DNA from: a virus | Taxonomy: Duplodnaviria; Heunggongvirae; Uroviricota; Caudoviricetes | DNA: 11,443 nt | Reading direction: 5' to 3' (one strand) | IMG/VR virus record: IMGVR_UViG_2551306674_000011 | Shown: piece after piece, positions 1,270 to 8,555 of the stretch | Layout: the number at the start of each line of letters is the position of its first letter | Numbering within the stretch: position 1 is the first letter of the stretch | Made by a program: the position numbers and the translations under genes | Notes under the pieces: model-generated | Seen by the model: the letters and a program-made list of their open reading frames with translations, nothing else | The model's database searches: none | What the model was told of the DNA's origin: nothing

Positions 1270-1336
1270 AAATAGTTATTGGTTGATTTTTAAAATGAGT
1301 GTTAAGTAACATAATCTGGAGTTTTTAATTGTTAGT

Positions 1337-1345
1337 TGCTATAAT
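1337..1345 (+). promoter_or_regulatory. Candidate extended -10 promoter element (TGcTATAAT) for the cII-like gene
   Basis: Sequence tgctataat at 1337-1345 in a very AT-rich spacer, about 15-30 nt upstream of the candidate start codons at 1361 (GTG) and 1376 (ATG). No convincing -35 hexamer. Confidence 0.3.
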
Positions 1346-1360
1346 AAAAATCAACGTGAA

Positions 1361-2170
1361 GTGAGTGTGATTAACATGGCTGAGTTATTGCGAGAGCAGG
1401 AAGTTAAAATAGCCCTAATTGAATGGTTATATAAAAAAGGCATGCTTAGTGATGCAACGATCATTAATGAAATGGTTGTTGCTAACTGGAGCAGAAGAGC
1501 TGATTTGGCTATTGCCAATGGAAGCCTACAAGCTTTTGAAATAAAAAGCGATTTTGACTCTCTTAAGCGCTTGGATGGTCAGTTAAAAATTTTTAAATCT
1601 AGCTTCGAAAAAGTTACAATTGTGTGCGCGCCAAAATTTACCAGTGAAGTATCTAAACGGGTTTCATCAGATGTTGGCGTTGTAGAATTTCAATCTAATA
1701 ATAGTAGCGTACGCTTTAAAATAATTCAAAAAGGAAGGGTTTGCTCTCGCTTAAATAAATTTGTTTATTTGGGTTTTTTGCTTAAGTCTGAGCTTAAAGA
1801 TCTGCTTAATCAGTATGGAATTACATTTTCAAATGAACTACATAGGGATTGTCTTGAGGTTTTGGCATCTAAGTTATCTTTAAACAAGATTAGAGAATTT
1901 GTCATTACATCTATTAAAAATAGGTATCATGCGACATCTAATGATTTTTTATCTAGACTCCATGGTAATCAAGAAATATCTATAAACGATCTTGCCTTAT
2001 TGAGCAAAGCTAAAAGAAGGAATAATTCTTTGGTTAAGTTTGAGTTTAAGGCTTGTTCGGAGAAATCTTTAAATGAATACCATAAGGTTGATGTTGACTC
2101 TATAGTTAGGAAATATGGCGATGATGTTTCCTATATTCCGGAAAAAGTACTTAAAAGGGTTGTGGGCTAG
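1361..2170 (+). CDS. cII: cII-like accessory protein (269 aa) with PD-(D/E)xK-like nuclease motif; resembles sce7726-family partners of Beta_protein genes
   Basis: ORF 1361..2170 (GTG start in the track; alternative ATG at 1376). Motif RADLAIANGSLQAFEIKSD gives an acidic residue on a hydrophobic strand followed about 12 residues later by E-x-K, the restriction-endonuclease-fold signature. AT-rich codon usage unlike the backbone. Convergent with beta and ends at a perfect hairpin terminator. The symbol is assigned by position in the P4 nonessential region, not by recognised sequence identity. Confidence 0.6.
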   Translation: MSVINMAELLREQEVKIALIEWLYKKGMLSDATIINEMVVANWSRRADLAIANGSLQAFEIKSDFDSLKRLDGQLKIFKSSFEKVTIVCAPKFTSEVSKRVSSDVGVVEFQSNNSSVRFKIIQKGRVCSRLNKFVYLGFLLKSELKDLLNQYGITFSNELHRDCLEVLASKLSLNKIREFVITSIKNRYHATSNDFLSRLHGNQEISINDLALLSKAKRRNNSLVKFEFKACSEKSLNEYHKVDVDSIVRKYGDDVSYIPEKVLKRVVG

Positions 2171-2196
2171 GGAAGGCTAACCTTCCCTAGTTTTTT
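2167..2196. terminator. Intrinsic terminator between the convergent cII-like and beta genes
   Basis: Perfect 10-bp inverted repeat ctagggaagg / ccttccctag (2167-2176 and 2181-2190) with 4-nt loop ctaa, followed by a run of six T (2191-2196) on the + strand. Stem overlaps the cII-like stop codon; the beta stop lies 2 nt beyond the T-run. Confidence 0.65.
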
Positions 2197-2197
2197 A

Positions 2198-3265
2198 TTA
2201 GATAAGATCTTCCTCATCATGATCAAAGCCATACTGTAGAGCTTCAGATAGCTCAATTTGCTTATTTAAGTGTAGATTCACTCGAACAGCAATCCATTTA
2301 GCTGGACTTCCCATACCTGCTATATCCCCTATAGCAGCATTTCTTATCATTGCAGCTCCCCAAGAGTCCTCCCTTTGATAATGTGGATACTCTGCCAAAA
2401 TTGATTTCGCAGCTTCAATGAACCCTTCTTTATTCATCCCAGGGCGGCGCTCGAAATACCATGAATCATTTAACGCTATATCAATTCTAGGAACATATCG
2501 CCCAATTATGTTGTCATACACTACTGAATGAATTGAACCATGATCGCCATAAATAGCGACATCACTTCCACCAATATTTTGATGCAATTCTCTCTCAATA
2601 ACATCAATATATCCGGACTGTCCATTTTCACGGCAAAAATTTGTAACTGAACTAGGGAAGCTTGTTGCTAGCACACTAATTATGGCTTCAGGAATCTCAG
2701 TTCTAATCTGATTAATCGAATTTATTGCTGCAGCTGTTATAGCAGATACATTCCCTCTAATGTAGCCCAAATCTATGAAAACTATGGCATTTTCTGGAGA
2801 GTTCATCGATACTAGTGACGTCAGGGTTTTATTAATGTCTGTATTTAGATTTCTAATTCTAAATGCAATTGAACCTTTAAGTTCCTCTAAAACCCTGGCT
2901 TGGATAGATATATCTCTAAGTTTTGCTGAATCCGGCATCTGGACTACTGGAATAATATTATCATTTCTGGAACAAAACTCTATCCAGTTTTTAAAACCAT
3001 TCTCAGGAGAGAGTAGTTCGAAGCTTGACGCGCAATGATGAGAATTATCCTTTGTGACATCCAAAATAAATGGGAGATTACTCATCACTTCTAAACTTTT
3101 ATCTAACGATACCTGTATTTCTTCCGAGCGAGGCCATTTCCCCAAAGAAATTAAAGGTAATATTTTTTTCTTATTCTCATATGATAAATTATTCAGTCCG
3201 GTCATTTCTGCTGATCGTGTTCTTAGGGCTGGATAGTATGAGTAATTTTCAAAATATACTTTCAT
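2198..3265 (-). CDS. beta: Beta_protein family (sce7725-like) protein, 355 aa; P4 beta-type
   Basis: ORF 2198..3265 (-). N-terminus YYPALRTRSAEMTGL...ILPLISLGKW resembles the Beta_protein family N-terminal pattern as I recall it. Strong RBS GGAGG (complement of 3276-3280) 10 nt before the ATG, which starts 2 nt after the gop stop, so the two are translationally coupled. Confidence 0.75.
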   Translation of the reverse strand: MKVYFENYSYYPALRTRSAEMTGLNNLSYENKKKILPLISLGKWPRSEEIQVSLDKSLEVMSNLPFILDVTKDNSHHCASSFELLSPENGFKNWIEFCSRNDNIIPVVQMPDSAKLRDISIQARVLEELKGSIAFRIRNLNTDINKTLTSLVSMNSPENAIVFIDLGYIRGNVSAITAAAINSINQIRTEIPEAIISVLATSFPSSVTNFCRENGQSGYIDVIERELHQNIGGSDVAIYGDHGSIHSVVYDNIIGRYVPRIDIALNDSWYFERRPGMNKEGFIEAAKSILAEYPHYQREDSWGAAMIRNAAIGDIAGMGSPAKWIAVRVNLHLNKQIELSEALQYGFDHDEEDLI

Positions 3266-3267
3266 AT

Positions 3268-3669
3268 TTAATTAGCCTCCGAATCGATATTTTCTGGTCG
3301 GCTTGCTGTTCTTGGCATAGCGTTAATTTGGGGGTTCTGAGTAGCAAGATAAGCAGCTATACTTTCCATCTTCTCTTTCTGTTCTGAAGTTCTTGCAAGT
3401 TCTTTAATCAATTCTTTGTTTTCAGCCATCAAGTTTTGATTGGATTCATTATGACTCTTGATTACCTCCATATTACTTTTTATAACATTCGTGTGGTTGT
3501 TGCTAATTGCTTTAATCGTTCTGTGTGTAAACCATCCAATAAGTAAAGCAGCTAACCATCCAGAACAAACGAGCAACCATTGTGAAATATCTTGGTTGCG
3601 GATGAAGCTAGTAGCAATAGTGATTATGGTCCCAACAACGCCAATTAATCCATATACATGATTCAGCAT
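3268..3669 (-). CDS. gop: Small membrane protein (133 aa), two N-terminal TM helices plus charged C-terminal helical domain; P4 gop-type
   Basis: ORF 3268..3669 (-). Hydrophobic segments VYGLIGVVGTIITIATSFI and WLLVCSGWLAALLIGWF, then a K/E-rich tail (NKELIKELARTSEQKEKMESIAAYL). First gene read inward from the cos side and coupled to beta. Symbol assigned by position and arrangement. Confidence 0.65.
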   Translation of the reverse strand: MLNHVYGLIGVVGTIITIATSFIRNQDISQWLLVCSGWLAALLIGWFTHRTIKAISNNHTNVIKSNMEVIKSHNESNQNLMAENKELIKELARTSEQKEKMESIAAYLATQNPQINAMPRTASRPENIDSEAN

Positions 3670-3896
3670 CCTTTAACTCTCTCATGCCACGAATTCTTAA
3701 GGATCTTGCGACACTGACAAGAACCACCTTACATCAATCTATTTTTTGCATATTTTTCAGGATAGTGCCATCAAAAAAGACAGTTTTGGACCATAGGCCA
3801 TAGATTTTCTTCATTATGCTCCAATGTATTAACGAGGTATGTACTGAAGGCACTTTGACTACACAAATAATTAACTAACTTGTCGGTTTGCGCGCG

Positions 3897-3915
3897 GTGC
3901 TTTCCCCGCCTCGCC
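3897..3915. other. cos site (P2/P4 19-nt cohesive-end sequence)
   Basis: gtgctttccccgcctcgcc at 3897-3915 is the reverse complement of GGCGAGGCGGGGAAAGCAC, the P2/P4 cohesive end as I recall it. It lies between the accessory cassette and psu, as expected for an integrated (circularly permuted) P4. Confidence 0.7.
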
Positions 3916-7651: not shown

Positions 7652-8099
7652 TTTTCCCCAGCCCGGTGAGATTTACCGTTCTGCCGGTTTTCCCGATGTG
7701 GCCGTGGTCGGCATTCTGGAAGACGGTATTCCGTGGGAAATGCCGTACCGCTGCCCGGACATTGTCTGGAATCCGTACCGCCGTAAATTCAGTATCCTTG
7801 TGCGTATCCTCGCCGACGGGCGCACCACAGACATCCCGCTGGGGCGTTTTCTGCGGGAATTTACCTGTGACCGTCCTGACCTGTTTAAACGCAGCCCCGT
7901 AAACCGGCATGCGGTACTGAAAGAAATGGCCGGAGACCCGGAATTACAGAAATGGCGGGAGAAATATCTGGATATTTACCCGCAGGACCCTGTTCCGGTC
8001 AGCCGGGCGGCACCGGTGGCGCGGGAATGGCGGGAAATTCCCCGCACGGAGCCTGACCCGGAAATCACCCCGGATAACAGTTACCGCAATTATCTGTAA
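7644..8099 (+). CDS. orf151, conserved P4 left-operon protein of unknown function (151 aa)
   Basis: ORF 7644..8099, translationally coupled to epsilon. Length and position match P4 orf151. Confidence 0.8.
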   Translation: MFDFPQPGEIYRSAGFPDVAVVGILEDGIPWEMPYRCPDIVWNPYRRKFSILVRILADGRTTDIPLGRFLREFTCDRPDLFKRSPVNRHAVLKEMAGDPELQKWREKYLDIYPQDPVPVSRAAPVAREWREIPRTEPDPEITPDNSYRNYL

Positions 8100-8234
8100 T
8101 TAAAAAACGACACCCGAAAAATTAAATGTGCGTATTCGCGCAGGGATACGCACGTCTTCAGGAGACGCAGATATGCCTTATCAGTTAATGCAACCGGCAC
8201 GGAATGCAGTCATCTGTCACAGGGAGGAAAGCAA

Positions 8235-8555
8235 ATGAAAACACCCTTACCGCCCGTCTTACGCGCTGCCCTTTACCGTCGCGCTGTCGCCTGTGCCTGG
8301 CTGACCGTGTGCGAACGTCAGCACCGCTACCCGCATCTCACCCTTGAGTCACTGGAGGCGGCCATCGCCGCTGAGCTGGAAGGCTTTTATCTGCGCCAGC
8401 ACGGTGAGGAAAAAGGGCGTCAGATAGCCTGTGCCCTGCTGGAAGATTTAATGGAATCCGGCCCCCTGAAGGCCGCGCCGTCGCTGTCCTTTCTCGGGCT
8501 GGTTGTGATGGATGAACTCTGTGCCCGTCACATAAAAGCGCCGGTACTGCACTGA
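8235..8555 (+). CDS. cnr: Cnr, copy-number regulator (106 aa)
   Basis: ORF 8235..8555, RBS GGAGG 8 nt upstream, immediately before alpha. Length and position match P4 Cnr. Confidence 0.8.

Follow-up and report, generated by a model that had tools for sequence, protein, structure and literature searches.

The cII protein of satellite phage P4: a predicted PD-(D/E)xK nuclease that is paired with Beta

The cII gene of satellite phage P4 was analysed on an 11,443-nucleotide stretch of viral DNA (hereafter the window), on which it lies at positions 1361-2170. Based on a structural model and on conserved residues, it is very likely that the cII protein adopts the PD-(D/E)xK fold with an intact predicted active site, and the protein probably possesses real nuclease activity as well. 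With somewhat less assurance we favour a broader reading, in which cII would be a SAP-bearing, metal-dependent DNA nuclease acting as the DNA-targeting part of a core formed with the Beta protein. Gop-Beta-cII is a validated anti-phage system for which no molecular mechanism has been published, and the predicted active site of cII represents a component of it that is testable by mutation. The presence of a nuclease within a defence system will be no surprise to the specialist; the prediction made for cII is directly testable.

The cII gene of P4 and its present annotation

Comparison of the whole window to phage P4 (X51522 / NC_001609) showed 98.7% identity over its full length in two pieces, and the window is a P4 genome, att-permuted and in prophage gene order. 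Positions 1276-3915 were found to be 100% identical to GenBank record M27748, an entry for gop, beta and cII of P4, which means that the ORF of 1361-2170 is P4 cII itself. The first-pass annotation of this DNA had called the product cII-like, a label that is too weak, given that the protein is P4 cII proper.

The window opens inside int (1-1269), the ORF of which is 422 aa long here compared to 440 aa as annotated. The ORF of cII (1361..2170, + strand, stop codon included) can be read from a GTG at 1361 to give 269 aa, while the annotated ATG at 1376 gives 264 aa; residue numbers used below refer to the 269-aa reading. Scanning of the spacer between int and cII for a consensus sigma-70 promoter identified none. 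A Rho-independent terminator, formed by a stem of 13 pairs with a run of T behind it (2164..2193, + strand), is situated between cII and the convergent gene beta, with the spacer separating these two genes, which carries the terminator hairpin, being 27 nt in length. This element is labelled as the cII terminator in both M27748 and NC_001609. The convergent partner beta (2198..3265, - strand; PADLOC beta, 8.2e-188) encodes a predicted TIM barrel, and beyond it lies gop (3268..3669, - strand; PADLOC gop, 4.3e-70), whose product is small, with a hydrophobic N-terminal segment and a coiled coil. The genes psu, delta, sid and alpha were found after gop, in this order. The window ends in the crr region; an ORF there overlaps P4p05, a gene annotated as hypothetical. 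As cII itself matched PADLOC cll (3.5e-113), matches to gop, beta and cll were all obtained at one locus of the window, showing that the Gop-Beta-cII locus is complete.

The cII protein was also identified as a member of NCBIfam NF033832 (sce7726_fam) over residues 11-189 (151.3 bits, cut-off 70; 2.7e-44), and homologues of cII bear a precomputed match to Pfam PF26915, named Phage_P4_cII. A search of cII against a copy of Pfam-A without the PF26915 model returned no match at E <= 1. Among 5426 complete E. coli genomes, 39 carry cII at an identity of at least 99%, and in every one of these it is annotated just as a "sce7726 family protein". The same designation is used by RefSeq, with PHROG 984 given as "unknown function" and the PADLOC entry cll having no description. 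No nuclease assignment for cII was found in RefSeq, PHROGs, PADLOC or searchable papers, including those that mention sce7726, in agreement with the first-pass annotation, to which no such role of P4 cII was known. The searchable papers likewise yielded no enzyme assay and no mutational data on cII. The accompanying statement that the name cII is purely positional is probably wrong, as cII was reportedly defined through a clear-plaque or lysogenisation phenotype in the work of Ghisotti and colleagues from 1990.

Conserved residues and predicted fold of cII

A nuclease-type catalytic pattern had been described in the first-pass annotation at residues 46-62 of cII, and the protein does read there as described, with R46-A-D48 followed by E60-I-K62-S-D. 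The catalytic motif RADLAIANGSLQAFEIKSD covers residues 46-64 (nt 1496-1552, + strand) and comprises D48 (nt 1502-1504), E60 (nt 1538-1540) and K62 (nt 1544-1546), all on the + strand. Two further acidic residues on this strand, E12 (nt 1394-1396) and E37 (nt 1469-1471), are assigned to the putative active site. The bare D/E-x-K pattern in cII is not significant by itself: a loose form of it, D-x(8,25)-[DE]-x-K, was present in 87% of shuffles of the protein, and a stricter form with hydrophobic flanks in 2%. What places the motif beyond chance is the conservation of D48, E60 and K62.

This conservation was established on two sets of homologues. A word-indexed search provided 117 homologues down to 23% identity (118 sequences with the query), and in their alignment, built with 45 sequences first and then with all, E37, R46, D48, E60, K62 and S63 were invariant, as were D66, L68, R70, L71, Q74 and F82, with E12 present in 117 of the 118. 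When the profile was searched exhaustively against 1.84 billion representatives of 50%-identity clusters, the family expanded to 5708 clusters at E <= 1e-3, with 4308 at E <= 1e-10. The best 150 matches of this search yielded 135 new representatives with 24-41% identity to P4 cII, and in the alignment of these with the query (136 sequences) R46, D48, E60, K62, D66, R70 and Q74 were again invariant, while E37 was found in 135 (the exception being a gap) and E12 in 134. The D and E-x-K residues are thus conserved among homologues, D48, E60 and K62 being invariant in 118/118 and 136/136 sequences. Genome loci were fetched separately with a peptide pattern containing E-I-K-S and were used for gene context only; conservation of the motif among them is circular, since the retrieval pattern contains E-I-K-S.

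An additional conserved element, Q74-x-x-x-F78 (nt 1580..1594, + strand), is located on helix 2 of the model described below. With Q74 invariant and position 78 being F or Y in 118/118 and 132/136 sequences, the family has Q-x3-[F/Y] following the strand of the E-x-K. A QxxxY motif (motif IV) is typical of RecB-type PD-(D/E)xK nucleases, and Q74-x3-F/Y78 of cII bears a tentative resemblance to it. Comparison of the cII alignment with the YqaJ exonuclease from a related locus (L004) using hhalign gave no signal (probability 0.1%). A Cas4-like Fe-S nuclease was also considered for cII and rejected, there being no conserved cysteine column in the alignment of distant representatives.

The AlphaFold2 model of cII, based on the 45-sequence alignment, had a mean pLDDT of 89 and a pTM of 0.77. 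Its core has the order alpha-beta-beta-beta-alpha-beta, as in the restriction-endonuclease fold, and the predicted PD-(D/E)xK (restriction-endonuclease-like) domain spans residues ~10-125 (1388..1735, + strand). The elements of this domain are a helix at 12-25, strands at 33-40, 45-52 and 56-62, a helix at 71-81 and a strand at 84-89, followed by a helix at 91-100 and strands at 106-112 and 117-123. Helix 1 opens with E12, strand 1 carries E37, strand 2 carries D48, and strand 3 holds both E60 and K62. The model and the alignments present two structural features of the PD-(D/E)xK superfamily, namely the core fold and, family-wide, a D on strand 2 with an E-x-K on strand 3. The restriction-endonuclease fold suggested by the first-pass annotation is in this way supported by the prediction, both in the core and in the placement of the D and E-x-K residues.

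When the model was compared to known structures with Foldseek, the sole match at E <= 0.001 was PDB 3dnx (SPO1766; 1.2e-4, probability 1.0), which we take to belong to the MmcB-like / DUF1052 family. Bax1, YaeQ, AF2093, Cdn1 and Cap4 came next. The likeness of cII to 3dnx is one of structure only, with an identity of 13%, and cII was rejected as a sequence member of the MmcB-like (DUF1052) family, for which neither cII nor the 45 aligned members gave a Pfam match and no match to 3dnx was obtained. Features that set cII apart from 3dnx are its SAP-like motif, its helical tail and its constant pairing with Beta. Searches of PDB chain sequences at E <= 10, with cII alone (phmmer) and with the 45-sequence profile (hmmsearch), identified chance matches only; HisF and peptidyl-arginine deiminase appeared there at chance level and were discarded as relatives. 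Because there is no sequence link to solved structures, the nuclease assignment of cII rests on the fold and the conserved residues and not on sequence membership.

These results bear on whether the motif could be a chance match in a protein unrelated to nucleases. The frequency of the loose pattern among shuffles, the lack of a Pfam match (in the copy without PF26915) and the lack of a sequence-level PDB match would fit such an explanation, but it is refuted by the conservation and by the predicted fold, and its probability is regarded as practically negligible. A second alternative is that cII is an inactive pseudo-nuclease serving only as a DNA-binding or scaffold subunit. Inactive PD-(D/E)xK folds do exist and several non-enzymes were present among the structural matches of cII. 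Such inactive members usually lose acidic residues or the lysine, whereas E12, E37, D48, E60, K62 and Q74 of cII are invariant or nearly so down to 24% identity, making loss of activity very improbable.

Downstream of the nuclease domain, residues 140-169 (1778..1867, + strand; LLKSELKDLLNQYGITFSNELHRDCLEVLA) were identified as a SAP-like motif, SAP being a DNA-binding helix-extended-helix motif. Pfam SAP was detected directly in three Pasteurellaceae homologues of cII. In one of these (P0108) it scored 29.9 bits (cut-off 23.9) at residues 129-156, a segment that aligns with residues 140-169 of cII. Within the SAP-like segment of cII, nearly all homologues have R or K at the position of R162. 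The C-terminal ~70 residues form a helical tail that is poorly conserved and missing in many relatives, which are 192-230 aa in length. A further alternative, that cII cleaves RNA and not DNA, is opposed by the classical binding of DNA by SAP and by the nearest structural neighbours of the model, which include the DNA enzymes NucS, type II and type IIS restriction enzymes, FAN1 and Vsr. We consider RNA as the substrate to be improbable.

A Pfam scan of the 45 aligned members of the family returned just two families, SAP (3 members) and DUF5787 (3 members). The latter is an uncharacterised family, matched by the three cII homologues with a best E of 4.3e-5; for one of these (P0081) the match (26.1 bits; cut-off 25) extends across the nuclease core. 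Going by these sequence matches, DUF5787 may share the nuclease fold of cII.

The cII-Beta pair and its possible mode of action

In Burkholderia, in prophages of Pasteurella and in metagenomic contigs, cII was found to be followed by a convergent Beta_protein gene. A wider survey was made by scanning one genome per species and keeping the best 80 of 277 confirmed cII loci, these 80 being distributed over Proteobacteria, Firmicutes, Bacteroidota, Actinobacteria, Planctomycetota, Acidobacteriota, Chloroflexota and others. The beta HMM recognized a partner at 64 of the 80 and, after one iteration, at all 80; of the sixteen loci gained, all except two had a new gene with an E value between 1e-38 and 1e-78. 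At 79 of these best 80 loci beta directly followed cII in convergent orientation, typically with an overlap of the 3' ends (median about 32 nt). The reciprocal test was conducted on 40 viral contigs fetched via Beta, where a convergent cII was present in 38 of the 38 contigs having at least 700 nt past Beta. Together, cII and beta are an obligate convergent pair and the only constant genes of the locus; the conserved pair is cII-Beta, not Gop-Beta. The distant beta-like partners were compared to NCBIfam and gave no match, and hence no tie to the sce7725 family, which has been named beside sce7726 in a Leptospira paper.

Loci differ in the gene that lies upstream of beta. In Burkholderia and Pasteurella it encodes a Gop-like small hydrophobic/coiled-coil protein, whereas in 33 of the best 80 of 277 loci it encodes an M78 peptidase, either by itself or joined to an Xre HTH. 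The Xre-M78 fusion corresponds to PADLOC PD-Lambda-2_B (about 1e-92) and adjoins a Beta of the PD-Lambda-2_C type. Within this variety, gop is a lineage-specific third component. The third gene is absent from one lambdoid prophage locus in E. coli (CP061267.1 36334-37969; locus L093, 5007-6642). There, a cII-like gene of 192 aa and a beta gene of 365 aa share 41 nt. Where only two genes are present, the predicted nuclease is the most obvious effector, and the simplicity of these versions makes them the best experimental entry.

Some individual loci showed other arrangements. A Virgibacillus locus (L048) carries a DEDDh exonuclease of the RNase_T family upstream of beta (7767-8516, - strand). 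Two metagenomic loci have a stand-alone M78 peptidase before beta (L007, 5428-6344; L010, 7716-8638), the best PADLOC match of that in L007 being CapP of CBASS (8e-31). At both, beta is also preceded by a protein of ~141 aa with two predicted membrane helices, which may be an analogue of Gop. The two-gene pair of CP061267.1 sits between replication genes and hok / DUF968 / rusA / antiterminator genes.

From its AlphaFold2 model (pLDDT 91, pTM 0.90), Beta is predicted with high confidence to form a (beta/alpha)8 barrel, which is extended by helices at the C-terminus. Among 37 sequences 42 positions of Beta were invariant, many of them polar, including R15, R17, E20, K32, D69, E127, R170 and D241 as well as H246, D262, E272, R273, R328, N330 and H332. 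The matches to its fold include the DNA-guanine transglycosylase DpdA and a tRNA-guanine transglycosylase subunit, these being among many equally scored TIM barrels. To judge from its invariant polar residues, Beta would appear to be an enzyme or a ligand-binding protein more than a plain antitoxin.

We propose that cII is made up of two modules, with residues ~10-125 forming the PD-(D/E)xK domain and the SAP-like motif at 140-169 holding the DNA. The putative catalytic set would consist of E12, E37, D48, E60-x-K62 and Q74-x3-F/Y78, with which cII would cut phosphodiester bonds of DNA in a manner dependent on divalent metal. It would act together with Beta, a predicted TIM barrel with invariant polar residues of its own. 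The two proteins would constitute the conserved core of widespread defence modules, in which cII would be the DNA-cutting part, while Gop in P4 and the M78 peptidases or Xre-peptidase fusions of the PD-lambda-2 type would be exchangeable add-ons. We infer in this sense that cII may be the nucleic-acid-targeting component of the cassette, as the first-pass annotation had put forward.

The published genetics of the locus are partly at odds with this proposal. The gop-beta-cII system protects against lambda and P1 (Rousset et al. 2022, PMC9122126), and in that paper Gop and Beta are treated as a likely toxin-antitoxin pair with reference to Ghisotti et al. [quoted passage not shown] The phage gene orf184 has been described to trigger the toxicity of gop-beta-cII (Silas et al., bioRxiv 10.1101/2023.04.06.535777). 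Neither a fold nor an activity is assigned to cII by Rousset et al., Silas et al. or Vassallo et al.

The main alternative is that cII is not the killing component but a sensor or regulator with a nuclease fold, which would bind and perhaps nick or process a DNA end or a structure in phage DNA and pass the signal on to Beta, whereupon Beta would free Gop or another effector; it might otherwise tune P4 lysogeny. The organisation of the locus is compatible with this, as cII is a transcription unit of its own, convergent to gop-beta and with its own terminator, and the third genes vary as exchangeable effectors would. The reported origin of the name cII in lysogenisation or a clear-plaque phenotype would also suit such a role. 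Toxicity is placed in Gop and control in Beta by the genetics as recounted in PMC9122126, which again would agree with a sensor. However, a separate effector is missing from the two-gene cII-beta loci, and the full catalytic set is invariant in every homologue examined, which indicates selection on chemistry and not on binding alone. We view a sensor or regulator role as possible, if rather doubtful, and retain a DNA-cutting cII as the preferred explanation.

A bolder extension of the cutting role is that cII and Beta together represent an unrecognised two-enzyme, DNA-targeting immune module, older and far wider spread than Gop-Beta-cII or PD-lambda-2. Beta would then act on nucleic acid by excising, exchanging or sensing a base, and the cut by cII would be made at the site so produced or in unprotected DNA, a restriction-like logic without a methyltransferase. 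This scheme is speculative and, taken as a whole, unlikely. If it were true, the view of Gop-Beta as a toxin-antitoxin pair would become secondary. Apart from this scheme, the constancy of the cII-Beta pair suggests that the three-gene definitions and the picture of a Gop toxin with a Beta antitoxin miss the conserved core.

Comparison with known systems

As a protein, cII shares the PD-(D/E)xK core, with a D on strand 2 and a (D/E)xK on strand 3, with NucS/EndoMS, PaqCI, SdaI, NgoMIV, FokI and BamHI. In contrast to NucS, cII is without the N-terminal DNA-binding domain of the NucS type. It also differs from the type II and IIS restriction endonucleases, as its partner is a predicted TIM-barrel protein and no methyltransferase partner was seen. 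A type II restriction-modification system was rejected for the same reason, no gene beside cII-beta matching a methyltransferase family, either in the window, where the flanks are int, beta and, beyond it, gop, or in the related loci with listed genes.

Can2/Card1, Cap4 and Cdn1 are found among the structural matches of cII and are examples of a PD-(D/E)xK effector within an immune system. Proteins of this type possess a CARF or SAVED sensor domain, which cII does not. Control of cII, if there is any, would have to act in trans, for instance from Beta.

PD-lambda-2 consists of three genes encoding a HigB-like protein, an Xre-peptidase and a Beta-like protein, and was defined and validated without a cII-like gene (Vassallo et al. 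2022), which counts against the proposed place of cII in the core. Its third gene was described as "related to a P4 phage antitoxin" and is needed for defence, not for toxin neutralisation (Vassallo et al. 2022). Two loci of the PD-lambda-2 type were identified here (L053, 307-3994; L085, 5932-9379), with matches to PD-Lambda-2_B of about 1e-92 and to PD-Lambda-2_C of about 1e-57. At both of these loci a convergent cII-like gene adjoins (cll, about 1e-29; sce7726, 2.4e-47), and the first gene is PDC-M63A-like. Where PD-lambda-2 has its peptidase module, P4 has Gop.

The type example of the system is Gop-Beta-cII of satellite P4, and the window contains all three of its genes in the P4 order. 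To this system the present analysis adds a predicted fold and active site for cII, a predicted TIM barrel for Beta, and the recognition of cII-Beta as the conserved pair.
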